A stretch of 64,000 nucleotides of DNA from positions 11,739 through 75,738 of the forward strand of contig CANQJI010000001.1 of NCBI GenBank assembly GCA_947624205.1, written 5' to 3'. Positions 7,075 to 52,290 of this stretch are shown piece by piece. Made by a program: the position numbers and the translations under genes. Source of the stretch: an uncultured Akkermansia sp. (lineage in GTDB: Bacteria > Verrucomicrobiota > Verrucomicrobiia > Verrucomicrobiales > Akkermansiaceae). The notes beneath the pieces are model-generated. The model saw only the letters and a list, made by a program, of their open reading frames with translations. It did not search any database and was not told where the DNA came from. Within the stretch, counting starts at the first letter, position 1, and every line of letters starts with the position of its first letter.

Positions 7075-7386
7075 GGGCAAAAGCATTAGAAAATGCGTCT
7101 GCCTATGTACGAGGTACAACACGCACGACGGTGGTAAGTGCGGATGGACAACGCGGATGCGTTGCCTCGCAGGGGCGAACCGCCGATGGGGCGGCGGTGA
7201 GTCAACTTTCGACGTACGATTTGGGGAGTTCCCGCGCTTGCGCGCGAATCTGGCGAACGAGAGGGGAGCTTCAGAGTCATCAGCATGATGACCGCTCGTT
7301 GTCATGATTTTTGATGCGTTTAAACAATAACATCAGTCAATAAGGGCATTCCTTTGTTGATTAACTTCTCCTCAAATGCGTTTGCC
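7075..7386 (+). repeat. Modular palindromic MITE-like element, copy 1
   Basis: Left hairpin GGGCAAAAGCATTAGAAAATGCGTCTGCC, TACGA heptads, the 87-nt double-hairpin module (7118-7204), the GAGTTCCCGCGCTTGCGCGCGAAT palindrome, and a right arm ending CTCAAATGCGTTTGCC. Confidence 0.85.
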
Positions 7387-7765
7387 TTGATCCCATGTAG
7401 TTCACGTGGCAGCTGAGCGCACGCAGATTTGTCGCCACATTGCCCGTACCTCCCGGCATCTTTTCTTGACGGGTAATCTCGAAAATCGGCACAGATGCTT
7501 CCGGGGAAATGCGCTCTCCCCGTCTTATTGTACGGGCGACAGGGTTTGAATATGCTTTTACTCTCGTGGTAAAAGCCGTTTTTCTCCTTACGAGAGCGCA
7601 ACATTCTGTGCTTATGGCGTGCTTTTATGATGTTCCCAATGCTTCCTTATCTATTGCCTGTATTTGCGATATAGATTTATGGTGCGCCCTTTTTGTCCGC
7701 ATGGGCATCACGGAGAACGAATTTTCGTTGTTTTTCGGAAAAGTTCCTGATAATATGAGCGGAGA

Positions 7766-8161
7766 ATGGCTGAGCTTTGTGCAGAACAGGACGATGCACC
7801 GCGTTTTTCAGATGCGCTGCTCATTCTCTGTATCCTCGTGTTGCCGTTGCTTTTTTTCTTAGGCGTCATCTTCTCGTGCGGGGTGGTGTTTCTTGGGATG
7901 GTCCCCGCCGCTCTAGTGTACTTGCTGTTGCGACATAGGTGCACACGCTGTCGCTGTGCGTACTATGCGAGCGGGGCAGGAATTGCCGTGCCGTGGCTCC
8001 TATTCATGTTGTTTGCTGTGACTTTTAACGGGGCCTATTCTCTGTTGGATGTTGGGTTGTGTGTCATATATACTTTGTGTGTGATAGCGGTGCATGGGGT
8101 TGCTTTTTTGATATTCTACGCTCTGTGGAGATGGAACCGTGCGGGGCATCTGCAACCATAG
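7766..8161 (+). CDS. Hypothetical small polytopic membrane protein (131 aa)
   Basis: GGAG lies 4 nt upstream of the ATG. The product has about four hydrophobic helices. No homology recognised. Confidence 0.4.
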   Translation: MAELCAEQDDAPRFSDALLILCILVLPLLFFLGVIFSCGVVFLGMVPAALVYLLLRHRCTRCRCAYYASGAGIAVPWLLFMLFAVTFNGAYSLLDVGLCVIYTLCVIAVHGVAFLIFYALWRWNRAGHLQP

Positions 8162-8283
8162 CCGAACCTCCTTCTCGATGCGTCCACGCGTAACATACCT
8201 GATGGTGTTCCCGTCATGCGAAGATTTGAATCTTTCTCCTTTCGGTTCCCTCACTTTCTCGGAGCCTTTCATCAGTCCGGGAC

Positions 8284-8524
8284 AGGGCAAACGCATTAGG
8301 CAATGCGTTTGCCTATGTACGACGTACGATGTTGGATGTACGATTTATTAATAATGTGCGCGTTGCGCAGATTTTTTCGGATCATTAATGTATGCTGAGA
8401 TTCCTCTAGAGCCATCATCATGATGACTGCTGGTTGTCATGATTTTTGATGTGTATAAACATGGATATCAGTTAATAACGGCATTTTCTCTGTTGATTGG
8501 CTTCCCTCAAATGCGGTTACCCTA
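8284..8524 (+). repeat. MITE-like element, copy 2 (short subfamily), flanked by an 11-bp direct repeat
   Basis: Starts AGGGCAAACGCATTAGG and ends CAAATGCGGTTACCCTA. CAGTCCGGGAC is present at 8273-8283 and again at 8525-8535. Confidence 0.85.
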
Positions 8525-8694
8525 CAGTCCGGGACGCGAGCGTTGCTTCCGTCACGACAGTCTGATAAGATACAGCTTCACGGAGGCGCCTCGTGCCGTC
8601 CAGGATGCCATGCGAGGGCTGTAAGGCGCGATGACGTCGTATCCTGGTAATTTGTCTTTTCTCTTGGGGAAAGATGCTGTAGAATAGCGGCGTT

Positions 8695-9816
8695 ATGTTG
8701 CAAGCAGGTATTGTAGGATTGCCGAATGTTGGGAAGTCGACTTTGTTCAATGCGGTGACTCGTTCTCGCAAGGCGGAGGCTGCGAATTATCCATTCTGTA
8801 CGATTGATCCCAATGTGGGGGTGGTGGAGGTGCCGGATGCACGGCTGGCGGTGCTGGCGGAGATGAGTAAGAGCGCGCAGATTGTGCCTGCTGCCATTGA
8901 ATTTGTGGATATCGCCGGTCTGGTGAAGGGAGCGGCAGAGGGGGCAGGGCTCGGCAATAAGTTCCTTTCCCACATCCGGGAGACAGACGCCATCGTGCAG
9001 GTGGTGCGCTGTTTTGAAGATGCAGACATCATCCATGAGTTGGGGAGTGTGGATCCCGTGCGTGACATAGAGATCATCAATAACGAACTTATTCTGGCTG
9101 ACCTGGCATCGCTGGAAAAACGCAAAGAAACGCGCGTGAAGAAAGCGAAGAGCGGGGATAAGGAGGCGAAGGAAGAAGTGGCGCTCATTGACAAACTCAT
9201 GCCTCATTTGGACGCGGGGAACCCGGCAATTACGCTGGAGTTGAGTGAGGCAGAGCGTAAGTTGTTGAAGTCTTTTTTCCTGCTGTCGGACAAAAAGAGC
9301 ATTTTTGCCTGCAATGTAAGTGAGTCCGAATTGGCGGCAGTGTTGGCAGATCCGGATGCGCATCCTTTTGTGGGAGCTGTGAGGCGGTATGTTGCGGCGC
9401 AGCACCACGCTGAGGCGGTGGTAATTTCCGCGCGCATCGAAGAGGAGCTTGCCGAGCTGCCGGAGGAGGAAGCACGGGAATATCTGCAGGCCCTCGGTGT
9501 GGAGGATTCGGGCGTAAGTTTGCTTATTCGTGCCGTGTACCATCTGCTTGGTTTGCGCACGTACCTGACAACTGGTCCGAAGGAAACGCGGGCATGGACT
9601 ATCCCTGCCGGGGCAAAAGCGCCGCAGGCAGCCGGGGTTATTCATACGGACTTTGAACGGGGATTCATCGCGGCTCAGGTGGTGGCGTATGAGGATCTGG
9701 TAGCGTGCGGTTCATTGCTCAAGGCGAAGGAAAATGCCAAGCTGCGCATTGAAGGAAAGGACTACGTCGTACAGGATGGGGATGTGGTTGAATTCCGCTT
9801 CAATGTTTCCAAGTAA
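8695..9816 (+). CDS. ychF: Ribosome-binding ATPase YchF
   Basis: N-terminal [17 protein letters not shown]-loop, [11 protein letters not shown], and a C-terminal TGS-like ...HTDFERGFI...[13 protein letters not shown]. Confidence 0.95.
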
Positions 9817-9930
9817 GGCGTATTTTCCATTTGGCTTCCTGTGAGGATCAGCATCATCTCTTATCTCCTTGAAAGAGGTGTATAGTGGAGAGTCCTCCAT
9901 TTGAAGCATTCCTCCCCTCATGCCCTTCGA

Positions 9931-10470
9931 TCAGATTTTCTTCAGAGAGCGGATGCCCGTAATAGCGGCGATCCATTGCGCACCCGGGGCGTGAAGCGCA
10001 GTGTTGAAATTGCCGACACACCGGTTGTACATGAGCGCGAGTTCATCCTGGCGGAAGAGAGCGTGAGACACGTCATTGATTAACTCGCGAAGCTCGATAT
10101 CGTCCTGCATCTCTGGTATCTTCTCCATGGTTTCAACCGCGTTGAGTAGAATGAAACGCAGGTCTTTTTCCATACGGCTCAAATTTGTTGCGTCGTCTGC
10201 ATCCGGCGGTGGCATACTCCTCAGAGCCAGTATCCGTTGTGAGTCGTCTGCAAGGCATCGCAGGCGTCGAGGGCGTACGTCTCCCCGCGGGAGGAAGCCA
10301 GAGTAACGTAGAGTGAAATCGACAAGTCGTTCATTGCGAGTGCGTGTGCCTTCTCCCCAACTATACCAGGCGTCTTCCGCCGCGCGCAGAAGACGCTGCA
10401 GGCGCACCCATGTACCGACTCCCCACGCCAGCACTGCAACGAGAATCCCTAACGGAACTGCATATTCCAT
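9931..10470 (-). CDS. LemA-family protein (divergent)
   Basis: N-terminal TM helix followed by W-RLQRLLRAAEDAW, and a C-terminal MYNRCVGNFNTAL..PG..IA motif. This matches the LemA pattern YN.L..L...V..AW ... YN..V..YN..I..FP. Confidence 0.55.
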   Translation of the reverse strand: MEYAVPLGILVAVLAWGVGTWVRLQRLLRAAEDAWYSWGEGTRTRNERLVDFTLRYSGFLPRGDVRPRRLRCLADDSQRILALRSMPPPDADDATNLSRMEKDLRFILLNAVETMEKIPEMQDDIELRELINDVSHALFRQDELALMYNRCVGNFNTALHAPGAQWIAAITGIRSLKKI

Positions 10471-10586
10471 ATCCGACCATTTTTACGTACGCCTTTGTCC
10501 GGTACAAGGAAATAGAACCAACCGTTAGCCCCATGGAAGAGGAAAATCCAAATTTATCCAAAGTAAGAAAAATCTGTATTTTGGGC

Positions 10587-10614
10587 TTGCAAAACGGACA
10601 GATAGGTGTATATT
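10587..10614 (+). promoter_or_regulatory. Candidate sigma70-type promoter for rpsM-rpsK-rpsD
   Basis: TTGCAA (10587-10592), a 16-nt spacer, then TATATT (10609-10614). This would give a leader of roughly 80 nt before the rpsM ATG. Confidence 0.4.
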
Positions 10615-10692
10615 TCCCCTGCTCCGTTGGTGCCGACGCTCAGCACGGTTCACGGAGAAACCACCACAACGAACACTAAGAAAACCAGAAGT

Positions 10693-11064
10693 ATGGCACG
10701 TCTTTTCGGTATAGAGATACCCAATGAGAAGAGGGTGGAGGCTTCCCTGCGCTACATATACGGCATCGGGGCGTCCACCGCCAAGAGGGTGCTGGAGCAG
10801 GCCGGTGTTTCTCCGGACTTGCGCACCGGCACGCTGTCGGATGCACAGCTGACCAAAATTGTGCAGGCAATTACGAGCAACAATATCCTCATCGAGGGTG
10901 ACCTGAGACGCGAGAAGCAGATGGCGCTCAAGCGACTCACGAGCATCAACTGTCTGCGGGGAATACGTCATCGCAAGGGATTGCCGGTGCGTGGGCAGCG
11001 TACCCGTACCAATGCTCGTACCCGAAAGGGACGCAAAAAGACGGTGGGCGCTAAGAAGTCCTGA
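10693..11064 (+). CDS. rpsM: 30S ribosomal protein S13
   Basis: MARLFGIEIPNEKRVEASLRYIYGIG... is a canonical S13 N-terminus. The ORF-track start at 10606 is a spurious upstream extension. Confidence 0.95.
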   Translation: MARLFGIEIPNEKRVEASLRYIYGIGASTAKRVLEQAGVSPDLRTGTLSDAQLTKIVQAITSNNILIEGDLRREKQMALKRLTSINCLRGIRHRKGLPVRGQRTRTNARTRKGRKKTVGAKKS

Positions 11065-11110
11065 TCTCTGAAGCACAACGCATGAAAATCTAAAACGTAG
11101 AAAGCGAATT

Positions 11111-11662
11111 ATGGCAGACGAAATAAAAGAAGAGACGACGCCCACGGCTGAGAAAGTTGCGACTCCGCTTCCTGAAGTGGTAGCAACACCGATTGAGGAG
11201 TCCGCGGAGGAGTCGATGCAGCGCAAAACCGAGCAGAGGCGCGATATTTTCGCGGAGCTTGGTTTGGCTGAAGATGAGACAAAGGTCAAGATCCTCAAAG
11301 CGAAAGGTAGTAAAAACATTACCACCGGCATCGTGCATATTTCCTCCACTTTCAACAACACTGTTGTAAGTGTGACCGATCTGAAGGGGAACGTGATAGG
11401 CTGGTCCTCTGCCGGTAAGCTGAATTTCAAGGGAAGCCGCAAGAGCACGGCGTACGCCGGGCAGGTGGTTTGCCAGGATGCGTGTCGCCAGGCCATGGGT
11501 CATGGACTGAAGGAAGTGGAAGTTCGCGTGAAGGGACCCGGTTCCGGTCGCGAATCTGCCGTGCGTGCTGTGCAGGCTATGGGACTTGAGATTTCCTCCA
11601 TTGCAGATGTGACTCCCATTCCGCACAATGGGTGCCGTCCCCCCAAGGCTCGCCGCGCTTGA
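11111..11662 (+). CDS. rpsK: 30S ribosomal protein S11 with an acidic N-terminal extension
   Basis: The conserved core [12 protein letters not shown]...GSRKST..A....C...[18 protein letters not shown]...[18 protein letters not shown] starts at residue ~74. Start codon choice is uncertain. Confidence 0.9.
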
Positions 11663-11703
11663 TGCCTCTCATTTTACAACATTGAACATATCGTAGAAAA
11701 ATT

Positions 11704-12315
11704 ATGGCTCGTTACACTGGACCTACTGCCAAGATCAGCCGCCGTTACGGAGTGGAGCTTTTTGGTGTCAGTAAATCATTCACGCGTCGCCCCTTTCCTC
11801 CCGGACAGCATGGCGCTCGCGCCGGTCGCAAGAAGAAGTCGGACTACGGCGTGATGCTTGCTGAAAAGCAAAAGTTGCGTTATATGTACGGCGTGCTGGA
11901 GGGACAATTCCGTCGTTACTACCATGAGGCTTCTCGCCGTCGTGGCGTGACAGGCGATATCCTTCTGCAGCTTCTTGAGCAGCGTTTGGATAATGTGATC
12001 TTCCGTTCCAATTTTGCCAATACTCGTGCAGCTGCGCGCCAGATGGTCTCCCACGGTCACGTGTTGGTGAATGGCAAGAAGGTGGACATTCCTTCCTATC
12101 ATTGCAAGCCGGGTGACGTGGTGAGTGTGGCCGCTAAAACGCGTTCACAGGCTCTCGCCAACCGTTTTGTGGAGTTGAACACGGATGCTACTACCCCGGA
12201 TTGGCTGAGGGTTGATACAGCTAAGTTGACCACCGAAGTATTGCGTGTTCCCACGGCGGAAGAGATTGCTCCTATCGTGAATGTACAGCTCATCGTAGAG
12301 TTTTATTCCCGATAA
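11704..12315 (+). CDS. rpsD: 30S ribosomal protein S4
   Basis: MARYTGPTAKISRRYGVELFG..., an S4 domain with VSHGHVLVNGKKVDIPSY, 203 aa. Confidence 0.96.
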   Translation: MARYTGPTAKISRRYGVELFGVSKSFTRRPFPPGQHGARAGRKKKSDYGVMLAEKQKLRYMYGVLEGQFRRYYHEASRRRGVTGDILLQLLEQRLDNVIFRSNFANTRAAARQMVSHGHVLVNGKKVDIPSYHCKPGDVVSVAAKTRSQALANRFVELNTDATTPDWLRVDTAKLTTEVLRVPTAEEIAPIVNVQLIVEFYSR

Positions 12316-12349
12316 AGAGCAAAGGTCTTACCACACAAACTGTTTTCCA

Positions 12350-12385
12350 AGGTTCGCGGTTCTCATTACCGCGGACCTTTTTTTC
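12350..12385 (+). terminator. Rho-independent terminator after rpsD
   Basis: GGTTCGCGGT-tctcatt-ACCGCGGACC (one G-U pair) is followed by TTTTTTT. Confidence 0.85.
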
Positions 12386-12521
12386 GATGCGATAGGCTTG
12401 CTGTGTGAACGGAGTAAAGTGCCTCATAGAAGTCCCATGATTCATGTAGAGTTAGAGTCCGGATTTTTTGAAGGCGTCGATGGGTACCAACAAACTGAGG
12501 GGAAAAGGAAGGCAGAGGTTA

Positions 12522-12730
12522 GGGCAAACGCATTTGAGAGAAGTTGATCAGCAGAGGGAAATGACCTTATTGACCGATATTATCGTTGATACGCATCAAA
12601 ACTCACGACATCAAGCGTTCATCATGTTGATAGCTCTAAAGCAGTCTTCTCATTCGCCAAATTCCCGCGCCTCTGGCGCGCTATAATTCAAAGCATACAC
12701 CGAAAATCGAACATCGTACATGGGCAAACC
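12522..12730 (-). repeat. MITE-like element, copy 3 (inverted orientation; left hairpin truncated)
   Basis: Begins GGGCAAACGCATTTGAGAGAAGTTGATCA, the reverse complement of the right arm. It contains the CCCGCGCCTCTGGCGCG palindrome and TCGTACA heptads, and ends in the half hairpin GGGCAAACC. Confidence 0.8.
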
Positions 12731-12902
12731 CCGCCCCCGCACATCGCTCTAACGATTCATTTAGCCTCGCATTCGCTCTGCAAAACAAATACATGCAACA
12801 ATGCGGCATTTGCCCTTTTGCGTGATATCGTTCCAATACGTTTGGTCGGGGGTGAAGGTGGGTAGGGATTTCCTTCGATGCCTTTAGTTATCGATTTTAT
12901 GA

Positions 12903-14378
<1,476 letters not shown>

Positions 14379-14405: not shown

Positions 14406-14440
14406 CCCCGGACTTCCCGATTGGAGTCCGGGGTTTTTTG
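14406..14440 (+). terminator. Rho-independent terminator after gdhA
   Basis: CCCCGGACT-tcccgattgg-AGTCCGGGG is followed by TTTTTT. Confidence 0.9.
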
Positions 14441-14539
14441 GGTGCGTCAGGCATGACATGCAACTGGGGTGAAAGTCCCCAAGAGCCGCTGACAGGGCGG
14501 AATCAAATAGCCAGAGGCAACTGCGTCACTGTGACGTGG

Positions 14540-14639
14540 GATGCGGGGGCAGGGCATGCGCGTTGTCCATCCGCATTTACCGCCGTCGTGCGTGTTGTAC
14601 ATCGTACATAGGCAAACGCATTTCCTAATGCGTTTGCCC
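14540..14639 (-). repeat. MITE-like element, copy 4 (partial, inverted)
   Basis: Contains the hairpin GGCAAACGCATTTCCTAATGCGTTTGCC, TCGTACA heptads and the first part of the 87-nt module (reverse complement AACACGCACGACGGCGGTAAATGCGGATGGACAACGCGCATGCC). Confidence 0.8.
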
Positions 14640-14727
14640 TGAGGTCCATATTTTTTCTTGACGCAGCGTGCAGAACGTGTCAGGATGAGGATAATCATTA
14701 GGAGGAAAAAGCGCTATAAAAACGGAT

Positions 14728-17023: not shown

Positions 17024-18468
17024 GAGATAGCGTGATGATCTACCTAAACCACAAAGCCAAGCGCGAGCTGCTCGCTGAGATGCTCTACAAGCGGCTCAAT
17101 GGTGCGGGGAATAAGGTGGAGGTGACGCGCCGCGGGTATGCGTACGATGCGCTGGGACGTCCGACTTCCCGCACGCAGGCGTACCCGCAGCAGAGCGTCA
17201 GCAGAGATGATTCCTTCGACTATAACAGACGCTCGGAACTCACCGGCGCGAAGCTCGGGGAGGCTCCTTATGCGTACTCCTACGACAACATCGGCAACCG
17301 CATCACGGCGCAGGAGGATGCGGAGCACATCACCTACGCGGCGAACAATCTGAACCAGTACACGCAGATTGACACGGACGGCACGGTGTTCGTTCCGGAG
17401 TACGATGAGGACGGCAACCAGACGCGCGTGCGGACGGGCACGGGCATCTGGAAGGTGCAGTACAATGGACAGAACCGCGCCATTCGTTACGAGTCTGAGG
17501 CGGATTCCACGCACATCATCACGTGCGTGTACGACTCGCAGGGACGCCGGGTGGAGAAGAAGGAGGAGAAAGAAGGCGCAGCCATCAGTCACGTGCGCTA
17601 TGTGTACCGGGGCTATCTGCAAGTAGCGGCCTACGATTTGCTCGCGGAGGGACTGCCCTCATTGTGGCAGATTATCTGGGATCCGACGCAGGAAATAGCC
17701 ACACGCCCGCTGGCCATACGAGCGGACGGGGCATATTCCACGTACGGTTGGGACTTGACGAAGAACATCTGCGAGACTTATGCCGGGGCCACGGGCTCCC
17801 TCATGCACCGCTACGCCTACTCCCCATACGGCTTAGTTTCTCTTGAAGGTGACACCTCTTACCAACCTCTCCAATGGAGCAGCGAGGTGTATGACGCTGA
17901 GCTTGGACTCGTTTACTACAACTACCGCTACTATAATCCCACCGATGGCAGACGGATAAATCGAGATATATTGTTCAGCATAAATCAAATTGCTCTATAT
18001 AATTATTTGTCTAATAATCCGATTTTAATGAAAGATATCTTGGGACTTAGTGCGGATGGTGTTTTAGAAGCCTTGGCAATATTAGAGAAAGAAATAAAAA
18101 AATTATCAGGCAGAGTGCTAGGCAATATACTAGAAGCCATCAATATAGGGCAGTCTGTTTACCAAGGCTTTGAAGCGTTGATGGATGTGCCCGAGTGCGT
18201 TAAGGATGAACGGAGCCTGGGTATTTGGATGGAAAAACGCAGACAATTAGCTAGAAGCTCCTTATCAAATTTTGTTAGTGCCGTACTAGTACTTGCAGCA
18301 ACATATCTCAGTGGAGGATGGGCGGCTCTTGCAGCTTCATTTGTGCTTGGCGAGATACGCGAATTTCTGGAATCTCTCGTAAGTGATGAATTCATAGATC
18401 GTATTATAAATGCTGTAAATGATGATGTACCGCCCGTGAAATGCGATTGCACATACGAAGTCAGCTAA
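17020..18468 (+). CDS. Orphan Rhs C-terminal cassette 1: partial YD-repeat core plus a variable C-terminal toxin domain
   Basis: YD repeats YAYDALGRPT, YSYDNIGNRIT and VYDSQGRRVEK. The core end is YYNYRYYNPTDGRRINRD...NNPILMKDILGL, followed by a unique ~150-aa tail with a hydrophobic segment FVSAVLVLAATYLSGGWAALAASFVLG. There is no N-terminal trafficking domain, and the start is uncertain. Confidence 0.75.
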   Translation: MRDSVMIYLNHKAKRELLAEMLYKRLNGAGNKVEVTRRGYAYDALGRPTSRTQAYPQQSVSRDDSFDYNRRSELTGAKLGEAPYAYSYDNIGNRITAQEDAEHITYAANNLNQYTQIDTDGTVFVPEYDEDGNQTRVRTGTGIWKVQYNGQNRAIRYESEADSTHIITCVYDSQGRRVEKKEEKEGAAISHVRYVYRGYLQVAAYDLLAEGLPSLWQIIWDPTQEIATRPLAIRADGAYSTYGWDLTKNICETYAGATGSLMHRYAYSPYGLVSLEGDTSYQPLQWSSEVYDAELGLVYYNYRYYNPTDGRRINRDILFSINQIALYNYLSNNPILMKDILGLSADGVLEALAILEKEIKKLSGRVLGNILEAINIGQSVYQGFEALMDVPECVKDERSLGIWMEKRRQLARSSLSNFVSAVLVLAATYLSGGWAALAASFVLGEIREFLESLVSDEFIDRIINAVNDDVPPVKCDCTYEVS

Positions 18469-28000: not shown

Positions 28001-28934
28001 GTGTTTAGGATAAAAATCACACAGGATGAATCCATGGTGAGTTTACCCTTTGCAGAATCCTTTTCGTCGATGAGCGCGGCAACCTCACGACTTCTTGGGT
28101 TGGAACACGAATATTGCGGAGCCCTCACCAATCAGCTAGCCACGCAGATCACCGATGCGAACGGTCGCCGCATCTACGCTTACGATCAGTACGGCTCTCT
28201 GAACTATGAGCGCAGTTTTTATGGGGATAACACCTTTGCGGTGAATGAGAAATGGGACAAGTTCGGACGCAGCGTCGGCTATCAGTCACGCAAGAGCGGC
28301 TCAACAATCACAGAGGTGAACATCGGCTATGCAGAGGATGGACGCATCGAATCGGCGAGCTTCCGGCACGGCGGGGCGGAGAGGAAATTCACGTACGGGT
28401 ATCTGGCGGGCAGCAATCTGCTGCAATCGCTCGCCATGCCCAATAAGGTGACGCTGACGCAGACGTGGGAGGAGAAGCGAGACCTGCATCGAAGAGATGC
28501 TCTACACGCGGCTCAATGATGCGGGGAAGAAGGTGGAGGTGACGCGCCGCGGGTATGCGTACGATGCGCTGGTACGTCCGACTGCCCGCACGCAGGCGTA
28601 CCCGCAGCAGAAGAGTTTGCGCGGGAGGATTCCCTCGACTATAACAAGACGCTCTGAAAGCGCCCGACGGCTGGCAGGGCGCTTGGACAAAAGCGCAACT
28701 TTTGCCCCGAAGGGGCGAGGCATCGATGGGGCGAAGCCGAGGCAACTCAACGGCGCTACAACTCGGGGAGGCTCCCTACGCGTACTCCTGCGACAACATC
28801 GGCAACCGCATCACGGCGCAGGAGGATGCGGAGAGTGTCACCTACGAGGCGAACAATTTGAACCAGTACACGCAGATTGACACGGAAGGCACGGCGTTTG
28901 TTTCGGAGTACGATGCGGATGGCAACCAGATGCG
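28001..28934 (+). pseudogene. Rhs/YD core fragment with frameshifts and one 87-nt palindromic-module insertion, truncated by an IS right-end remnant
   Basis: YD repeats (IYAYDQYGSL, FGRSVGYQ, YAEDGRIESA). A 1-nt indel follows LTQTWEEKRDL. The reading frame switches between the track ORFs 28001, 28497 and 28702. Confidence 0.8.
28658..28744 (+). repeat. 87-nt double-hairpin module inside the Rhs fragment
   Basis: AAGCGCCCGACGGCTGGCAGGGCGCTTGGACAAAAGCGCAACTTTTGCCCCGAAGGGGCGAGGCATCGATGGGGCGAAGCCGAGGCA lies between ...CGCTCTGA and ACTCAACGGCGC. This is the same host position as at 38.3 kb. Confidence 0.85.
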
Positions 28935-29162: not shown

Positions 29163-30119
29163 ATGTTTGAGAACCTTTCCAAGAACCAGGGAGTTTTAGA
29201 CATTACACATGCTTTTGCCGATGTGGAGCATCCGGGGGATGAAGCCTTGACTTTCCCCGTTCCGAACGGATGGTATGAGTGTGATATAGAGTATTTTTAT
29301 TCATGGAAGCAAAGCAACTGGACTGAATTGAGGTGGAATAGGTTGCGCCGGGAGGCATCCTCTTTAAGCTTTCTCGCCCCTGCAGGCTTATTGTACGCGA
29401 TTCCGGCCTACTTACTCATGATTTATGTAACCGAGTCTGTGAAAAGGGAAATCAAGCGAATATGGGAAGAATTGTATGCTGGAGAGGTTTGCCCTATCGA
29501 TGATTTCATTCCTGATGTCAACGATTTCTGGTGTGTTGACCGGATCTTGTTGAGGCTAGCAGCTTCCGGGAAGAAAAATCGACCGGCTTTAACGCGTGAA
29601 CAAGTCATGGCGCTTGAATCCTATTTTCTTTCGGAAATAAGTTCCACGATGGGCAGGGAAAAAGGAGATATATTAGACAAAACATACGATCATTACGTGA
29701 GCAGAGTGCGGAGAAATTATCGAATTGAAACATCAATGGAAACCCAGACTACGATATGTTGCAAAGGGGCGGATTTTTCGCGGGAAATGATGCAGTTGCC
29801 GTCGCCATTGGCAGAATATCTTTCCAAATATACACGGATGCGGGTTGCCGGAGAGGAATTTAAAGAATTGTTGTCACTGTGGGATGCCGCTCAATTTGTA
29901 TATTCACCACGACAAGAAGACTTTACCAATCACCTCGATCCGAACAAGGCAGGAGTAAGTTCACGCGTGCGTGAAGAACTGACATCGGATGTGCTCCATA
30001 CTCTGTCAAATACTCAATTAAAGCTCGTTTACCGCTTTTTCCTGCAATATGAACTTCAGGAGAAGGAAGAGTGGATGAATGAAAAAAACATCAGAGACTT
30101 TTGCAAGATTGTATTGTGA
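29163..30119 (+). CDS. Hypothetical cytoplasmic protein (318 aa); distant paralog of 19028-19840
   Basis: Clean ORF with no signal peptide. It shares the motif block listed for 19028-19840. Confidence 0.55.
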   Translation: MFENLSKNQGVLDITHAFADVEHPGDEALTFPVPNGWYECDIEYFYSWKQSNWTELRWNRLRREASSLSFLAPAGLLYAIPAYLLMIYVTESVKREIKRIWEELYAGEVCPIDDFIPDVNDFWCVDRILLRLAASGKKNRPALTREQVMALESYFLSEISSTMGREKGDILDKTYDHYVSRVRRNYRIETSMETQTTICCKGADFSREMMQLPSPLAEYLSKYTRMRVAGEEFKELLSLWDAAQFVYSPRQEDFTNHLDPNKAGVSSRVREELTSDVLHTLSNTQLKLVYRFFLQYELQEKEEWMNEKNIRDFCKIVL

Positions 30120-30157
30120 ATCGCAAAAACACATGCAATAGAGGATGAAAGAAGCCC

Positions 30158-30392
30158 AGGGCAAACGCATTAGAAAATGCGTTTGCCTATGTACGATGTT
30201 GGATGTACGATTTATTAATAATGTGCGCATTGCGCAGTTTTTTTCGAATCATTAACGCATGCAGAGGAGGTCTTAGAGCCATCATCGTGATGATCGTTTG
30301 TCGTCGTGATTCTTGATGCGTATAAAACGGTAATACCAGTCAATAAGAGTATTTCCTCTGTTGATTAACTTCTCCCCAAATGCCTTTGCTTT
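30158..30392 (+). repeat. MITE-like element, copy 6 (short subfamily, like copy 2)
   Basis: GGGCAAACGCATTAGAAAATGCGTTTGCC hairpin, heptads, TTATTAATAATGTGCGCATTGCGCAG, and a right arm ending CCCAAATGCCTTTGC. Confidence 0.85.
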
Positions 30393-30469
30393 GGGCGGGG
30401 CGTTGTCGTCGGTTGGACGGTATTCGACTCCGCTCCCGGATCTTTGCTCCGGCACATTGGCGCCGATGG

Positions 30470-31666: not shown

Positions 31667-31707
31667 GCTGCCTTCATGATAGCGCACGTCTTCGGTGGTG
31701 TCAAGGT

Positions 31708-31990
31708 TGGCAAACGAATTAGGAAATGCGTTTGTCTCTGTTACGACGTACGATGTTGGATGTACCGACGGTGGCGCCTGGCGGCGCCTATGTACGGGGT
31801 ACGAAGTACGATGTACGATTTGGATCATAGCGCGCGTTGCGCGGGGATGCGAAGAACGCTGGTTGTCATGATTTTTGATGCGTATCAACGATGGTATCGG
31901 TCAATAAGGGCATTCCTCTGTTGATTAACTTCTCCTCAAATGCGTTTGCCCTGGGAATTCGGTGGCTACGTCGCGAGTTTGGCGAAGCAG
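31708..31990 (+). repeat. MITE-like element, copy 7
   Basis: TGGCAAACGAATTAGGAAATGCGTTTGTC hairpin, heptads, GGCGCCTGGCGGCGCC palindrome, and a right arm ...TTGATTAACTTCTCCTCAAATGCGTTTGCCC. An extra GAATTCGGTGGCTACGTCGCGAGTTTGGCGAAG module lies beyond it. Confidence 0.85.
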
Positions 31991-38043: not shown

Positions 38044-38744
38044 CGAATATAGAGAGGTCTGTGAATTGCAGAACAAAAGCAACGGGTGAAGGACAGACTG
38101 AGATGCTTAACCCAAGCCACAAAGTCAGCCGCGACCTGCTTGCGGGCATGGATTATGTGCGTGGCAATGGTCTCATCACGCAACGCCAGTACAACTACGG
38201 TGCGCTTGGGAGACCGATGACGCGCGATACGCGCTACCCGAATAAGGCGATTCATCATGCTGATACCTTCGCTTACAACAAGAGGGGTGAAAGCCCACGA
38301 GGGCTCGGAGTGGGATTGGACAACGCGCAAGCGTTGTCCGCAGGGCGAACCTCCGATGGGGCGGTGGTGAGTCAAAGCGCCCGACGGCTGGCAGGGCGAT
38401 TGGACAAAAGCGCAGCTTTTACCCCGAAGGGGCGAAGCATCGATGGGGCGATGCTGAGTCAACTCACGGGTGCGCTACTTGATGAGAATGCCTACGCCTA
38501 TGCCTACGACAACATAGGCAACCGTGAAATCGCCCAGGAGGTAACTGAGGGCATTACCTATGCCGCCAACGACCTGAACCAGTATACGCGCATCAGCATG
38601 AATAGCGAATCTATGAGAAGAGGGAAGAAGTTGAGATCGAGTTCGGAAAATTCTAATCATGTGATAAAAAAACTGGTAGTTAAATGGGACTGCTCTTGCA
38701 TTCCTAAAAAGAGTGAAGGAAGTCTGAGTATTAGCAATTCATAA
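38040..38744 (+). pseudogene. Rhs core fragment carrying two tandem 87-nt modules in frame, with an unrelated short tail
   Basis: YNYGALGRPMTRDTRYP...FAYNKRG, then 58 inserted aa, then LTGALLDENAYAYAYDNIGNREIAQE..ITYAANDLNQYTRI. After this the Rhs similarity ends, and there is no core-end motif. Confidence 0.7.
38288..38461 (+). repeat. Two tandem 87-nt double-hairpin modules embedded in the Rhs fragment
   Basis: Unit 1 is ...GGATTGGACAACGCGCAAGCGTTGTCCGCAGGGCGAACCTCCGATGGGGCGGTGGTGAGTCA. Unit 2 (38375-38461) is AAGCGCCCGACGG...TTGGACAAAAGCGCAGCTTTTACCCCGAAGGGGCGAAGCATCGATGGGGCGATGCTGAGTCA. Confidence 0.85.
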
Positions 38745-45938: not shown

Positions 45939-46006
45939 GGTATGGGTCGGTTGTGAATGAATGGAAGAGGTGTGTGTATGCCCTTGCCTTGAGGCAATCG
46001 AAGAAA

Positions 46007-46034
46007 GGCAAACGCATCAGAAAACGCGTTTGCC
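46007..46034 (-). terminator. Solo left-end hairpin of the repeat family, positioned as the rplY terminator
   Basis: GGCAAACGC-atcagaaaac-GCGTTTGCC. On the minus strand it is followed by TTTCTTCG. One TACGA-heptad remnant (CACGATTTACGATG) lies next to it. Confidence 0.55.
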
Positions 46035-46061
46035 TTTCACGATTTACGATGTTCCCCGGGA

Positions 46062-46616: not shown

Positions 46617-46917
46617 ATTATATCGTTCTAAAAATGAGGTTTGTTTCAGGATGATTCCGACGTCGGTGCGCTTACGTCACCCGCCGAGTGTACGCGCCCA
46701 CGCCCGCGAGGCATGAGCGGACGCGCAGGATGCCACAGAACTCCTCCTTTGTCAAGGAAAAACAAATTTTTTACGACATGATTTCCTCTGGCTGCGACCA
46801 GGGACAACCACATGAAAAAAATGCGGCTGTTATCTACGATTTATTGAATACGATGCGTTACGCAGATTTTCCGGATAAGCAATGCATGAGAGAGGATGGG
46901 AAAAGAGAAATGCCGCT

Positions 46918-47562
46918 CTACGATGAGGGAAGTTCTTGCGATTGCTGCAAATTGGGGGGTGATTGGTTTGCATCTGGTCTTTCCGGAGGATCCGTTGATT
47001 TTTCCTGCGGGCGATTAACGATGTTGGCGGCGGCTTGGAAACCTCGGGTGAGGCAGATGCCGATGCCGTCCACCGCGCGGTTGAGGGCATCCTGCAGAAT
47101 TTGCTGTTGTTCCGGGGGGAAGTTGCCGAGGACGTGACCGACGAGTGAGCCGGAGCCGTGCGAACCGATGCCGACACGGAGGCGAGGGAAGCGGTCTGTG
47201 CCGAGATGGGCAATGATGGATTTCATGCCGTTGTGTCCGCCGGCGCTGCCGCCTTCGCGCAGGCGCAGGGTACCGAGCGGCAGGGCGATGTCGTCGTACA
47301 CGACGAGAAGCTCAGACGGCGCGATTTTGAAGTAGCGGGAAAGGGAGCCCACGCACTCGCCGGAGTCGTTCATGAAAGTTTGCGGCTTGGCGAGAAGAAA
47401 ACCTCTTGAACCCGATACGAGGGCGCGATGGGTGCGATCTTTCTTCCAGCTCGCGCTCATCTTGTCGGACAGGAGGTCAAGCACCATGAAACCCGCGTTG
47501 TGGCGCGTGTTCACGTATTGGTCGCCCGGGTTGCCGAGACCGACGATGAGACGCAGGGACAT
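46918..47562 (-). CDS. pth: Peptidyl-tRNA hydrolase
   Basis: MSLRLIVGLGNPGDQYVNTRHNAGFMVLD, DDIALPLGTLRLR..GS.GGHNG.KSI. It has a C-terminal low-complexity extension of about 25 aa. Confidence 0.93.
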   Translation of the reverse strand: MSLRLIVGLGNPGDQYVNTRHNAGFMVLDLLSDKMSASWKKDRTHRALVSGSRGFLLAKPQTFMNDSGECVGSLSRYFKIAPSELLVVYDDIALPLGTLRLREGGSAGGHNGMKSIIAHLGTDRFPRLRVGIGSHGSGSLVGHVLGNFPPEQQQILQDALNRAVDGIGICLTRGFQAAANIVNRPQEKSTDPPERPDANQSPPNLQQSQELPSS

Positions 47563-47586
47563 AGGCAGGAAAAGTTGGCAGGAGTA

Positions 47587-49137
47587 TTACTCGCTCAGCA
47601 TGATACTGCGGTTGACGGCGTTGAGGTAGGCGCGCGCGCTCGCTTCAATCACATCGCTTGCCGCGCCTTTGCCGCTCACCGGGCGCGAACAGGTCTCCGA
47701 ACCCTCGCCGAAGATCACCTTCACCGAAACCTCTCCCAATGCATCCTGTCCTGCCGTGGTGGAGCGCACAGCGTAGTCCACAAGCTCGCCGCGGGTGCGG
47801 GTGATGCGGTCGATGGCCTTGAAGCAGGCATTCACCGGACCGTTGCCGATGGCGCAGTCGGTGTAGGGGCGGCCCTCCTTTTCCAGGGTTACGGTAGCGG
47901 TCGGTTTCGTGTTACTGCCGGCGGTGAATTGGATCATCACCATCTTCCATTTGCCGTGGTGCGTGTCCAGGGAATCATTTACCAGTGCCGAAAGATCGTC
48001 ATCGTACACGAATTTCTTGCTGTCTCCAATGTGCTTGAAGCGTTCGAAGACCTGTGCCAACTCCTCTTCGGAAAGTACGTGCCCCAGTTTTTCCAGCCTG
48101 GCTTTCACCGCCGCGCGACCGGAGTGCTTTGTAAGCGGCAGCTCAGTTTCGCCCCAGCCCACTTCAGCGGGATCCAGCACTTCATAAGTTTCGCGCTTGG
48201 AGAGAATACCGTGCTGATGGATGCCCGAGCTGTGCGCGAAGGCGTTTTCGCCGACGATAGCCTTGGAGCGTTGCACGGCGAGACCACTCATGCGGGAGAC
48301 TGTGCGACTTGTCTTCACGAGCTCGCGCGTGTTCACGGTGAGCACCCGGGCATCTTTCTCGAACCCGAAGGAATCCGGCCGCAACCGCAGCGCCATGATG
48401 ATTTCCTCGAGTGCAGCATTGCCGGCGCGTTCGCCGATGCCGTTGATGGCGCCTTCCACTTGGCGCGCGCCCGCCCCCACAGCCGCGAGGGAGTTTGCCA
48501 CGGCGAGTCCGATATCGTTGTGGCAGTGTACGGAGATGATGGCGCGCTCAATGTTGGAGACGTTCTTGCGCAGGTAGGTGATAAGATTGGCGAATTCGGT
48601 AGGAGTGCTGTAGCCGACGGTATCCGGGATGTTCACGGTGGTCGCTCCGGCATCGATGACGGCCTCCACCACTTGCGCGAGGAAGTCCCACTCCGTGCGG
48701 CTGGCGTCTTCAGCCGAGAATTCGACGTCCTTCACGAGGCTGCAGGCGAGTTTCACATGGCGCACGGCGAGATCCAGCACTTCTTCCTTTGTCTTGTGGA
48801 GTTTGAACTCGCGGTGCAGGGGACTTGTGGCGAGGAAGGTGTGGATGCGTCCTCGTTCGCCCGCTGCCGCTACGGCTGCAGCCGCCTGACGGATGTCATT
48901 CTCCACGCAGCGTGCCAGGCCGGCGATGACGCAACTTTTCACCGTGCGAGCGATGGAGGACACAGATTCAAAATCCCCGTCTGAGATGCAGGGGAAGCCC
49001 GCCTCGATGATGTCGACTCCCAGCTTTTCCAGTTGGCGGGCCACTTCGAGTTTCTGCCGCAGGTTCATCGATGCTCCGGGGCATTGTTCTCCGTCTCGTA
49101 AGGTGGTGTCAAAGATGCGTACGTGGTCAGTTTTCAT
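47587..49137 (-). CDS. leuA: 2-isopropylmalate synthase
   Basis: VRIFDTTLRDGEQCPGASM, HCHNDIGLAVANSLAAV.AGA..VEG.INGIGERAGN, and a C-terminal LeuA dimerisation/regulatory domain. I chose the ATG at 49137 (MKTDHVRIF...) over the longer ORF. Confidence 0.95.
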   Translation of the reverse strand: MKTDHVRIFDTTLRDGEQCPGASMNLRQKLEVARQLEKLGVDIIEAGFPCISDGDFESVSSIARTVKSCVIAGLARCVENDIRQAAAAVAAAGERGRIHTFLATSPLHREFKLHKTKEEVLDLAVRHVKLACSLVKDVEFSAEDASRTEWDFLAQVVEAVIDAGATTVNIPDTVGYSTPTEFANLITYLRKNVSNIERAIISVHCHNDIGLAVANSLAAVGAGARQVEGAINGIGERAGNAALEEIIMALRLRPDSFGFEKDARVLTVNTRELVKTSRTVSRMSGLAVQRSKAIVGENAFAHSSGIHQHGILSKRETYEVLDPAEVGWGETELPLTKHSGRAAVKARLEKLGHVLSEEELAQVFERFKHIGDSKKFVYDDDLSALVNDSLDTHHGKWKMVMIQFTAGSNTKPTATVTLEKEGRPYTDCAIGNGPVNACFKAIDRITRTRGELVDYAVRSTTAGQDALGEVSVKVIFGEGSETCSRPVSGKGAASDVIEASARAYLNAVNRSIMLSE

Positions 49138-49190
49138 AGTAGTGCCCCCCATGTTATTCCCTCGTTTCCTCCGGGTCAAGAAAAAAGTGA

Positions 49191-49239
49191 ATCCTCACGC
49201 ACGCGCGCTTTGAGCGGGCGTGCGCGAGGGACATGATTT
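49191..49239 (-). promoter_or_regulatory. Terminator-like hairpin plus T-run in the leuA leader (possible attenuator)
   Basis: Minus strand: CCTCGCGCACGC-ccgctcaaagcgc-GCGTGCGTGAGG (one G-U pair), then attcac-TTTTTT, about 50 nt upstream of the leuA ATG. Confidence 0.35.
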
Positions 49240-49444
49240 TCTATGTTGTTGAACCGTATAAAATATTCTGAAATTCAGAAGTTTACAGAAATATTCATAC
49301 ATGTGCCAACGTCGTGAAAAAAAGGATTAGATTTTCCCTGCATACACGGAGATTGAACTGCCAAAAACGTGGAAGAAGGCGTCGAATCTTCCAGAAAGTG
49401 CGCAGGCGAAAACGATCAAACGAAGGCACGAGGAAGAGGAACAA

Positions 49445-49800
49445 GGCAAACGCATTTCTAATGCGTTTGCCTATGTACGATGTATGATTTTCGATGTACA
49501 ACACGCACGACGGCCCCGTAGAGGGCGCACGCGTTAGCGGGCGGCGGTGGCAGGCGGGGCCTGCCTATGTACGATGTGCGATTTACGATGTGCGATTTGG
49601 GGAGTTCCCGCGCTTGCGCGCGAATTCGGCGGACTACGGCGGGGCGTGGAATGCGGCGCTGAGGCTGGGAGTTCCCGCGCTTGCGCGCGAATTCGGCGGA
49701 GGGCATTTGTCGTCATGATTTATGATGTGTATCAACGATCATATCAGTCAACAAGAGCATTTCATCTGTTGATTAACTTCTCCTCAAACGCGTTTGCCCT
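49445..49800 (+). repeat. MITE-like element, copy 9
   Basis: GGCAAACGCATTTCTAATGCGTTTGCC hairpin, two heptad tracts, a variant GC-rich module (GGCAGGCGGGGCCTGCC), two copies of GGAGTTCCCGCGCTTGCGCGCGAATTCGGCGGA, and a right arm ending CTCAAACGCGTTTGCCC. Confidence 0.85.
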
Positions 49801-49883
49801 GGAGAACAATGCGGAAGTCGGCTGTGTTCTCATTTTGAATATCAAATCTTGCCATGCGCGCGTGTGCATGGTAGGATCCTCCT

Positions 49884-52055
49884 ATGAAACGGCTTCTCTG
49901 CTGCATGATGTTGCTTGTCGGTCTGTTGTCGGGCGCAGCTCCGGGACAGGAAGGGGACACGTCCTTTCGTGCCGCTGTTGAGGCAAGCGTAGGCAGTTTT
50001 ACCCCAGGACAGAGCTTCTACATCGCCATGCGTGGCGCGATCCCCGAGGGGCTGCATGCCTATTACCGCAATCCCGGCAGTGTCGGAGAAGCGGTATCGG
50101 CTCAGCTCCGGCTCCCGGAAGGTTTTTCGGCTGAGGGGCCGTTTTGGGAGGTTCCGCACAGGATGAGTTCGTCCGGCGGCAGTATCCTGGCGTACGGGTA
50201 TGAGAAAGAAGTGGTGGCCGTCTGGCGTGTGCAGGCTCCGCAGAATTATTCCGAGTCCGGCGCTGATTTCGTGATTGATGCCACGGCGCAGCTCTGTTCC
50301 GACGAGGGCTGTCTTCCTACGCAGGAGGTTGGCGCTTCCCTCCGGCTGTCACGCGGGGATGGCACTGCTTCTTCGGCGTGGAATCAGGTTGAGCAGCGGG
50401 TGGAGACGCTCGGCGACGTTTCTCTTTCGCAGCTCTCCGCTTCCCGAGGGACAGGCGGTGCGATCGATCTTCGCTTTACCTCTCCCGTCAATCAGCAGGA
50501 AGCGTATTTTTTCAGCGATGACAACAGCGTCGCTCCCGATGCTCCTCAGACTGTCCGCCGTGAGGGCGATGCGTGGCTCCTCTCCCTGCCGTGCAACGAT
50601 GGCAAGAATCTCCTCTATCCCGCCCCTGAGAGACGTCCGAAAACGATCAGCGGCAATCTCGTGTTTGCCGATGGGTCGCACGCACGCATTGTTGACCTGC
50701 CGATCGAGTGGAATAACGGCTCCCGGTGGGTTGTCCCCGCGGGGTTGTGGGGTGTTGTTGCCGGCCTCTTCCTCGGGGGATTTCTGCTGAACCTGATGCC
50801 CTGCGTGTTCCCCGTTCTTGGACTGAAAGTGATGGGGTTTGTCGAGCTAAGCGGTGGCAGTCGGGGCAAGGTGGTGGCGCATTCTCTGGCGTTCACGGTG
50901 GGGATTCTGGTAAGCTTCTGGGTGCTCGGGTTAATCCTCGTGGGGGTGAGCCAGGCGCAGGCTCTGTTATCTTCCCCGTGGCAGGATTGGGCGAGTATCC
51001 TCCTCTGGGGGGATGAGGGAGGCGCGGATCGCAGTTGGGCTTCGTGGATGGAGAATCAATGGGTGGTGTACGGGATCGTGGTGCTGCTGATGGTGCTCGG
51101 GCTCTGGATGTACGGGGTCTTTGAGTTCGGGGCCCGTGCCACGGGCATCGGCGGCGAATTACAGCGTCGCGGCGGTATGATTGGCAGCTTCCTGCAGGGT
51201 TTGCTCGTCACGGTGGTCGCTACCCCTTGCAGCGGACCCTTCCTCGGCGCCGCCATGGCTCCGGCGATGTCGATGCCGGGACTCTGGTTGCTCGTGGCGC
51301 TCAGCGCGATGGCTGTGGGGCTCGCCTTGCCGTATCTCGTGCTCGGCATCTTCCCCGGGTTAGTCGCTATTCTGCCGCGTCCGGGGGCGTGGATGGAATC
51401 CCTGCGCCAGGCTTTTTCCTTTTTCATGCTGGCAGCGGCGGCGTGGATGCTGGATGTGTACCTGACCTTCGTCGATGGCGGGGCAGGTGTGATGATCGGT
51501 CTCGTGGTGGTGGCAGCCGGCTGCTGGGTGTTCGGTCGTTGGTGTCCGCTGTGGCGCAGCCGGCTGAGTCGTTGGCTGGGTGGATTTGTCGCTCTCTGTC
51601 TCGTGGGTGCCGGGGTGTTCTGGTCAATGCCGCGGAACCAGGAGGAAAATGCCGCTGTCGATTGGGTTGATTGGTCGCCCGCCGCCATGGCGGAAGCGCT
51701 CGAGGATGGCTCTCCGGTTTTCGTGGATTTTACCGCCAAATGGTGCGCTACCTGCCAGGGGAATAAATTGGTGGCGTACTCTGACGAGGTCATGCAATTG
51801 TTGGAGGAGCGTGGAGTCGTGCTCATGCGGGCGGACAAAACCAAGCCCAACGCAAAAATCGATGCTGAGTTGCGGCGTCTCAATCGCAGTGCCGTGCCGA
51901 CAAATGCTCTCTACCTGCCGGGCAAAGAACCCATCGTCACGCGTGAGTTGCTCACCCCGGATTATCTGTTGGATTTCCTCCGGGAAAATCTCCCCTCTGA
52001 GGAAGGACAGAATGAGGATCCTGCGGATGATTCCAATACGGAGAATGACGGCTAG
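49884..52055 (+). CDS. dsbD: Thiol:disulfide interchange protein DsbD
   Basis: Signal peptide and an N-terminal periplasmic domain. The central TM domain carries LNLMPCVFPVL and VATPCSGPF, and the C-terminal thioredoxin fold carries FTAKWCATCQ. Confidence 0.93.
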   Translation: MKRLLCCMMLLVGLLSGAAPGQEGDTSFRAAVEASVGSFTPGQSFYIAMRGAIPEGLHAYYRNPGSVGEAVSAQLRLPEGFSAEGPFWEVPHRMSSSGGSILAYGYEKEVVAVWRVQAPQNYSESGADFVIDATAQLCSDEGCLPTQEVGASLRLSRGDGTASSAWNQVEQRVETLGDVSLSQLSASRGTGGAIDLRFTSPVNQQEAYFFSDDNSVAPDAPQTVRREGDAWLLSLPCNDGKNLLYPAPERRPKTISGNLVFADGSHARIVDLPIEWNNGSRWVVPAGLWGVVAGLFLGGFLLNLMPCVFPVLGLKVMGFVELSGGSRGKVVAHSLAFTVGILVSFWVLGLILVGVSQAQALLSSPWQDWASILLWGDEGGADRSWASWMENQWVVYGIVVLLMVLGLWMYGVFEFGARATGIGGELQRRGGMIGSFLQGLLVTVVATPCSGPFLGAAMAPAMSMPGLWLLVALSAMAVGLALPYLVLGIFPGLVAILPRPGAWMESLRQAFSFFMLAAAAWMLDVYLTFVDGGAGVMIGLVVVAAGCWVFGRWCPLWRSRLSRWLGGFVALCLVGAGVFWSMPRNQEENAAVDWVDWSPAAMAEALEDGSPVFVDFTAKWCATCQGNKLVAYSDEVMQLLEERGVVLMRADKTKPNAKIDAELRRLNRSAVPTNALYLPGKEPIVTRELLTPDYLLDFLRENLPSEEGQNEDPADDSNTENDG

Positions 52056-52290
52056 GGCCAACGCATTAGGAAATGCGTTGGCCTATGTACGATGGACGAT
52101 TTACGATGTACGATTTGAATTATAGCGCGCCAGAGGCGCGGGAATTTGGCAGAGCAAGTGCGGATGGACAACGCGCATGCGTTGCCCCGACAGGGGCGAA
52201 CCGGCAGTGTGGTGCTGGTGAGTCAATTTGGAAAGTTCGCGCGCCTGCGGCGCGGGCGCGCGTAGCAAACGCGGGAGCTGAAATCGTGAA
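52054..52290 (+). repeat. MITE-like element, copy 10 (left part only; no recognisable right arm)
   Basis: AGGGCCAACGCATTAGGAAATGCGTTGGCC hairpin with compensatory A-to-C and T-to-G changes, four heptads, the GCGCGCCAGAGGCGCGGG palindrome, and a variant 87-nt module ending GGTGAGTCAA. The dsbD TAG stop overlaps its first bases. Confidence 0.8.

Follow-up and report, generated by a model that had tools for sequence, protein, structure and literature searches.

The 64,000-nt stretch of DNA analysed here (contig CANQJI010000001.1 of an uncultured Akkermansia sp., called the window below) carries a real, multi-copy family of modular, hairpin-rich repeats located between genes. We consider it very likely that these repeats represent non-autonomous DNA transposons of a high-copy family, namely miniature inverted-repeat transposable elements (MITEs) of ISAs1 type, which have grown into mosaics with a nested cassette of four hairpins. 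A preceding sequence-only reading of the window had listed ten copies built from five modules and had likened them to bacterial interspersed mosaic elements (BIMEs) with MITE-like termini. All ten copies and all five modules were found where they had been placed, and a profile search recovered ten of the ten. This profile was made from 37 complete elements of 214-245 bp from the window and related Akkermansia loci, the limits for inclusion being a distance of 205-250 bp from the base of the outer hairpin to the right terminus. The left hairpin pattern gave 12 strand-matches at 8 positions of the window and none in 100 shuffles; the right-arm terminus was matched four times and the GC palindrome four times exactly, in both cases at a shuffle expectation of 0.

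For the anatomy of the element 86 right arms were located with a profile hidden Markov model in the window and 97 further loci (747 kb in total, the sequence to which the family-wide counts refer) and paired with left hairpins, yielding 53 complete elements. Their lengths have a sharp mode at 236 bp, measured between the base of the outer hairpin and the right terminus; the terminal trinucleotides bring this to 242 bp. The elements are bounded by terminal inverted repeats of 15-16 bp (CAGGGCAAACGCATT at the left end, AATGCGTTTGCCCTG at the right), which are kept across the 37 aligned elements. The full termini read CAG followed by GGCAAACGCATT at the left end and AATGCGTTTGCC followed by CTG at the right end, and among the 53 elements the trinucleotide is CAG at 27 of the left ends and CTG at 23 of the right ends. 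No consistent coupling between left- and right-end variants was seen when the complete elements were listed.

The left hairpin consists of the left inverted repeat and a second, inverted copy 4 nt inward; it measures 28 nt (27 nt in the copy at 49445), not 29 nt as first described. In the consensus it is followed by two to six heptads of the form TNNACGA, one GC-rich hairpin with a subsequent T-run, and a conserved right arm of about 120 nt in which direct inspection of the sequence revealed no conserved open frame. The number of heptads varies through alignment gaps of exactly 7 nt. Part of the modules that had been called interchangeable, the GC palindromes, turned out to be variants of one hairpin position: they share it with the TGCGC-GTT-GCGCA hairpin of the 236-bp form and are subfamily variants of that internal hairpin. 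The four-hairpin cassette described below is an independent nested insertion. As a single strand the canonical element has a predicted fold with a z-score of -5.4. The compensatory changes that had been reported for the left hairpin are real and modest, three of 12 pairs being doubly changed, mostly in one subfamily with A-T replaced by C-G; beyond this hairpin, covariation is nearly absent from the element body (3 of 38 predicted pairs).

Directly outside the CAG and CTG ends, at a fixed offset, a 10-bp direct repeat was found, which is perfect in 14 of the 53 elements and identical in at least 8 of 10 positions in 22. With shifted offsets, 0 of 159 controls had fewer than four mismatches. 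The inverted repeats and this target-site duplication bear out the MITE-like termini of the sequence-only reading, and because of the duplication and the full termini beginning with CAGGG a MITE fits the repeats better than a BIME-style mosaic does.

Empty sites were identified as well. Window positions 25088-25296 are a paralogue of the sequences flanking the element at 26347-26801 and contain a single CCTTATTCCA, and in another species bin a continuous 498-bp match of 82% identity (locus L079) runs across the insertion point of the element at 3539-3780 of locus L038. Locus L067 contains two elements and locus L074 the older of them alone; the duplication of the extra copy abuts the terminus of the older element. 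In a single bin, of the Lapin-024 bin76 lineage, an identity of 99.6% is reached by copies that occupy different loci and have different duplications (L051, L003). Targeting of own ends was also indicated: an end-like motif lies within 30 nt of the flanks in 5 of the 22 elements with a good duplication, at a background of 4.7%, and several insertion targets are themselves pieces of the terminal repeat. These targets suggest that the element inserts into its own ends, yielding tandem and nested composites. At 2916-3569 of locus L049 a 217-bp composite unit, made up of a hairpin, heptads, a GC palindrome and a cassette, occurs as 3.0 tandem repeats, and the 99% identity of these units indicates a very recent amplification.

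The ends and the duplication length point to the ISAs1 family. Members of this family have inverted repeats of 14-22 bp starting with CAGGG and a 10-bp direct repeat (PMC11946415); ISArsp11, for example, is 1,306 bp long with CAGGGCTGATGCAAAGTCG ends and the 10-bp direct repeat GGAACAGCAC (PMC6305408). The H-rpt around yhhI of E. coli K-12, whose protein YhhI has close relatives named "ISAs1 family transposase" at NCBI, has the left end CAGGGAAAGA and, 10 nt past the stop codon, the right end CAGGGCAAGA (reverse complement). The first eight bases of the Akkermansia element, CAGGGCAA, are the first eight of the H-rpt right end. Judged by its CAGGG ends and its 10-bp duplication, the element acts like an ISAs1-family insertion sequence and most likely derives from one. 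It shares with ISAs1, IS1358, ISEc1/H-rpt and ISArsp11 the CAGGG start, inverted repeats (15-16 bp) within the 14-22 bp of the family and the duplication length. It differs from them in having no transposase gene, in its length of 236 bp (242 bp with trinucleotides) as compared with about 1.2-1.5 kb, in the additional inverted repeat copy that turns the left end into a 28-nt hairpin, and in its subterminal heptads and nested hairpin cassettes. We know of no described MITE of ISAs1 type.

The family covers 2,548 bp (4%) of the window. According to rough gene calls there are about 35 gaps of 50 bp or more, of which 10 are occupied by the family, so that its presence in most intergenic gaps had been overstated. 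The copies are as follows.

7073-7389, + strand: copy 1, 317 bp, GC-palindrome subtype with one four-hairpin cassette at 7115-7217; target duplication not recognisable.
8283-8524, + strand: copy 2, canonical, 236 bp without and 242 bp with the end triplets CAG and CTA; perfect 10-bp duplication CAGTCCGGGA at 8273-8282 and 8525-8534.
12520 to about 12745, - strand: copy 3, intact right arm and degenerate left hairpin, between the rpsD terminator and gdhA.
14529-14641, - strand: copy 4, truncated left end with hairpin, heptads and the first half of the cassette, downstream of the gdhA terminator.
26347-26801, + strand: copy 5, composite of 455 bp with a cassette at 26529-26630; perfect 10-bp duplication CCTTACTCCA at 26337-26346 and 26802-26811.
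30157-30393, + strand: copy 6, canonical, 237 bp, between the convergent open reading frame (ORF) 29163-30119 and lpxK.
31706-31990, + strand: copy 7, ending at 31953, after which comes a fragment of the GC-palindrome region of another copy; divergent promoter region of lpxK / 32188.
46004-46054, + strand: copy 8, left-end fragment with hairpin and two heptads, between rplY and speA.
49442-49801, + strand: copy 9, 360 bp, two GC palindromes plus a variant hairpin in its interior; divergent leuA-like / dsbD-like region.
52053 to about 52300, + strand: copy 10, left end whose hairpin is compensated (GGCCAACGC...GCGTTGGCC), plus a cassette at 52119-52238; right arm absent.

Copy 8 had been taken for a solo hairpin and is actually a left-end fragment of about 50 bp. 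The first three bases of copy 10 (52053-52055) are TAG in place of CAG and form the stop codon of the dsbD-like ORF 49884-52055; this insertion may have reshaped the C-terminus of the dsbD-like protein.

The module that had been described as an 87-nt double hairpin holds four hairpins and is a separable inserted unit that is present outside the family, too. This cassette is 84-87 nt long and was detected with a covariance model (R1) in 7 copies in the window and 81 in the 747 kb. It consists of hairpin H1 with the loop GACGGCTGTAAG, the linker TTGGAC, H2, H3 (CCC-GNA-GGG), H4 and the tail GAGTCAA. H4 includes a tandem G.A and has the loop ATGGGG or GGGTGG; at its base (for example at window positions 7180-7210) a tandem G.A/A.G mismatch, present in 47 of 78 distinct copies, alternates with Watson-Crick pairs. 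GNA triloops closed by C-G are frequent in H2 and H3, a motif of very stable DNA mini-hairpins. Written as RNA, the constant loops and linkers are GACGGCUGUAAG, UUGGAC, the GNA triloop hairpin, AUGGGG and GAGUCAA.

The stems of the cassette covary. In a MAFFT alignment, which was not fitted to the structure, 12 of 25 pairs show double-sided changes and the covariation score is 0.327, compared with 0.137 for shuffles; none of 500 shuffles reached this score and slid controls remained at or below 0.08. The model-based alignment of the 81 copies yielded double-sided changes in 21 of 25 pairs and a score of 0.459 (0.147 for shuffles). This alignment leans toward the structure; slid controls nonetheless stayed at or below 0.075. 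Folded as single-stranded DNA, the cassette forms the same four hairpins (z -3.5). Mismatches in the stems are 41 G.T and 16 A.C, an excess which is a modest sign suggesting that one of the strands matters.

The cassette is an independent unit that can be separated from the MITE. In one bin, near-identical MITEs of 320 bp and 236 bp differ by the cassette alone, and another cassette subtype is inserted in the opposite orientation, so that both orientations occur within MITEs. Four Rhs-like paralogues in the window contain 0, 0, 1 and 2 cassettes at one point, with a boundary ambiguity of at most 2 nt and no duplication. The cassettes outside of MITEs are the following.

28654-28757, + strand: one cassette outside any MITE, inserted in an Rhs-like cassette; it is missing at the exact point from the paralogues at 17150-17290 and 20019-20159.
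38287-38474, + strand: two tandem cassettes at the same position in another Rhs-like paralogue.

Cassettes chain head to tail. The trinucleotide TAC precedes the cassette on its own strand in 35 of 81 copies, whichever way the cassette points relative to the heptads; in the Rhs region the insertion follows CTG or CGG, not TAC. Relative to local GC skew the cassettes are unbiased (37 against 44), and for the MITEs a replication-strand bias is borderline (35 against 18, p=0.075).

From these observations a mechanism can be proposed. A DDE transposase supplied in trans would cut at the CAGGG ends and insert the element via a 10-bp staggered cut, and, as the ends and the duplication length indicate, this enzyme would be of the ISAs1 family. 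Mosaics would then arise by several routes, some of them seen directly in the sequences and others deduced: new copies would land beside or inside the ends of older copies, the separate 84-87-nt four-hairpin cassette would enter the heptad tract or other places without target duplication, the number of heptads would shift by whole units, and entire composite units would be amplified in tandem.

Several points weigh against this interpretation. In about half of the complete copies a duplication cannot be recognised. The mean pairwise identity across the family is about 78% and much of it is old; together with the 99.6% identity of dispersed copies this means that the family is old but was recently active in at least one lineage. 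The structural conservation of the cassette and its conserved loops are not explained by a purely selfish-DNA view. The gene calls behind the orientation counts given below are crude, as they follow a longest-ORF heuristic. With E. coli YhhI as tblastn query no ISAs1-type transposase was found in the window and the 97 loci, and no autonomous element with these ends was found there either; this sequence represents about 3% of the ten genome bins, and such assemblies usually lose repeats. Since no transposase was found, the ISAs1 assignment is drawn from the end sequence and the duplication length. A YhhI protein search returned relatives only from enterobacteria. Candidates for a parent insertion sequence were examined and rejected: partnerless right arms and unassigned end motifs were all degenerate MITEs on inspection, and a "912-bp element" in locus L009 is really two elements flanking a fucU/rbsD-like gene.

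That no ISAs1 transposase was found in the 747 kb would also agree with the repeats being MITEs of another family with long duplications, for example IS4 or IS231-like, and some IS4-family groups also produce duplications of 9-12 bp. We regard this alternative as improbable, because the termini start with CAGGG, the first eight bases match the right end of the ISAs1-family H-rpt, and CAGGG combined with a 10-bp duplication is the signature of ISAs1 (PMC11946415, PMC6305408).

A further alternative is that the repeats are mainly functional cis-acting RNA, that is terminators, mRNA stabilisers or a small-RNA family, selected at gene ends with mobility being secondary. The good predicted single-strand folding of element and cassette would agree with this, as would the strong covariation of the cassette stems with their conserved loops and linkers and the preference of G.T over A.C. 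In addition, the internal GC hairpin followed by a T-run was flagged by a terminator scan (8355-8369), where it resembles a weak terminator, and copies 6 and 10 start within a few bases of a stop codon. The orientation relative to genes, however, is unbiased. Complete elements of up to 520 bp with a called gene on both sides lie in tandem contexts in 10 co-oriented and 14 anti-oriented cases, in 17 divergent and in 6 convergent regions, so that divergent (promoter) regions are the commonest site; for the cassettes 15 co-oriented and 20 anti-oriented cases were counted. Moreover, rpsD and gdhA possess strong canonical terminators of their own (12349-12379 and 14406-14433) with a T-run after a GC-rich stem of 11-12 bp; in each case the terminator comes after the stop codon and before the nearby MITE. 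The near absence of covariation in the element body and the occurrence of cassettes in a degenerate coding region and, within elements, in either orientation likewise argue against an RNA function. Rfam gave no match at gathering score in the whole window and none even at E<=1 in 7000-8600, which contains two elements and one cassette; tRNA or tmRNA genes were not found in the window. Altogether, we judge a mainly RNA-level function to be very unlikely.

Given the lack of an orientation bias and the separate terminators, the proposal that copies affect transcript ends is unsupported. Effects on host genes are probably incidental, and effects on transcripts are plausible case by case, for instance at the T-run hairpin of 8355-8369, near copy 1 and at copy 10 with its stop codon. 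Next to copy 1, 19 nt from its left end, a perfect sigma-70-type promoter (TTGACA, 16 nt, TATAAT) facing pgk is located at 7027-7054 on the - strand.

The least probable of the readings, by a narrow step, is that the repeats are of the repetitive extragenic palindromic (REP)/BIME type, in which palindromes are spread by a REP-associated tyrosine transposase (RAYT; HUH Y1) and assembled into mosaics, the apparent inverted-repeat termini being one palindrome. In the framework element the terminal inverted repeats are true ones and come with a 10-bp duplication, a feature that is never produced by HUH elements; the duplications refute the reading for the framework. What speaks for it is the modular architecture with many distinct hairpins and short GNA-type loops and, concerning the cassette, the absence of inverted ends and target duplication, the preceding TAC, the stem mismatches suggesting a strand-specific single-stranded form, and the end ...GAGTCAA. 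The last feature resembles the rules of IS608, which has the target TTAC and the right end TCAA. On the other hand, a GTAG-type REP head is absent, a tblastn search of the 747 kb with E. coli RayT was negative, and a Y1_Tnp gene was seen only in repeat-free Akkermansia loci, with no homologue in the repeat-bearing sequence searched. The lack of a GC-skew bias of the cassettes and their Rhs insertion at a site other than TAC do not fit either. A chance-level RayT match in locus L088 was discarded as a RAYT, as this region is a MITE without an ORF.

With the enterobacterial REPs and BIMEs and the BOX elements of S. pneumoniae the family has in common that extragenic mosaics are formed from palindromic units in varying module number (as for boxB). 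REPs and BIMEs, in contrast, lack both terminal inverted repeats and duplications and require RAYT, whereas the Akkermansia framework is a transposon of cut-and-paste style; its hairpin units stand in direct, not alternating, order and their loops are conserved. A likeness also exists to Correia elements of Neisseria, RUP of pneumococcus and MIC231 of Bacillus cereus, which are also small, non-coding, high-copy intergenic elements confined to a clade, with terminal inverted repeats, target duplication, length subtypes and hairpin folding. End sequence, duplication length and presumed parent family differ (Correia elements have a TA duplication and 26-bp repeats), and the Akkermansia element nests a second mobile hairpin unit. 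A literature search on Akkermansia MITEs, REPs, ISAs1 or ISfinder elements retrieved nothing relevant.

For the cassette itself, the palindrome-associated transposable elements (PATEs) derived from IS200/IS605 provide the comparison. Both are without inverted ends or target duplication, have hairpins near both ends and tend to insert after a short motif on one strand, TAC in the case of the cassette. A single-strand mechanism like that of IS200/IS605 would agree with the missing duplication, the hairpins and the TAC. The cassette differs by its four hairpins within 84-87 nt, its highly conserved loops and its tandem chaining. Furthermore, its insertion in the Rhs region breaks the target rule, it has no replication-strand bias, and no Y1 transposase was found near cassettes in the 747 kb. 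A dedicated protein could recognise the cassette as single-stranded DNA or as RNA; conceivable candidates are an HUH-type enzyme whose target rule is TAC-directed and a factor that is guided by RNA or binds it. That it represents a previously undescribed kind of mobile structured element is a tentative idea to which we give a minor chance.

The expectation that copies exist elsewhere was confirmed. A genome scan with the hairpin pattern, using one genome per species, listed at least 97 loci, and all listed loci belong to ten bins of "uncultured Akkermansia sp." from rabbit ("Lapin") gut metagenomes. Contigs encoding the exact GdhA protein of the window were found in the ENA assemblies ERZ272490xx-ERZ272493xx and in Logan runs. 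Independent short-read contigs with the window's gdhA (L105-L107, Logan) all end about 320-358 bp upstream of gdhA and, on its downstream side, after about 100 bp; these are the positions of MITE copies, which shows that the family fragments assemblies. By following GdhA homologues of falling identity we obtained up to 21 kb around gdhA in other Akkermansia. The locus at 90% GdhA identity (L110, ERZ27249386, from the accession range of contigs with the exact protein) contains at least five copies or fragments and the one at 87% (L114) one degenerate fragment. In the loci at 86-81% identity (L115, L111, L116, L112 and L113; 92 kb) no copies were found, with about 14 expected at the density of the window; L111, L113, L115 and L116 are also free of the cassette. 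Sampled via the listed loci and the gdhA loci, the family is confined to one subclade of the genus. In two of the repeat-free loci a gene for a Y1_Tnp (PF01797) protein of 336-345 aa lies directly upstream of gdhA (L112 2486-3496, L113 8655-9692). The two proteins are 71% identical, the genes are flanked on both sides by TTGGGGTCAGAT-type repeats unrelated to the MITE, and the proteins look like domesticated or REP-associated tyrosine transposases.

The collections searched yielded no RNA, plasmid or phage match. By blastn the canonical element had no match in PLSDB or INPHARED; in IMG/VR neither the canonical element nor the hairpin and cassette patterns were matched. Based on these results a plasmid or phage origin is rejected. 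In JGI metagenome contigs the cassette pattern had 0 matches and the hairpin pattern matched one lone hairpin that is probably unrelated. This GGCAAACGCATTTCAAAATGCGTTTGCC hairpin (L108 1040-1067, WBZO01000223.1) is located between two convergent ORFs on an unrelated 143-kb contig, lacks heptads and right arm and may be a coincidental terminator-like palindrome.

The Rhs region in which two of four paralogues carry the four-hairpin cassette extends over window positions 16000-39000. It is an array of Rhs-like (YD-repeat) cassettes with many internal repeats (D1-D6, D9, D12, D17, D18) and broken frames and looks like a graveyard of toxin/immunity cassettes. A separate repeat of 54-146 nt (AAAAAGGGGGCTTAAATAAGCTTCC...GGGCACCAGTTTA), unrelated to the MITE, occurs five times between ORFs of this region (at 22401, 25246, 26908, 29040 and 37354).

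With a density of about one copy per 6 kb, many occupied promoter regions and copies that can supply a stop codon (52053-52055), the elements are a likely source of regulatory and structural variation at the strain level in a genus of medical interest, and they are possible typing markers for the rabbit-associated clade. The cassette bears the statistical signature of functional structure and has no known relative; it is the part that could prove new. To our knowledge this would be the first MITE linked to the little-studied ISAs1 family, and its insertion beside its own ends would explain how BIME-like mosaics arise from an ordinary element of cut-and-paste style.

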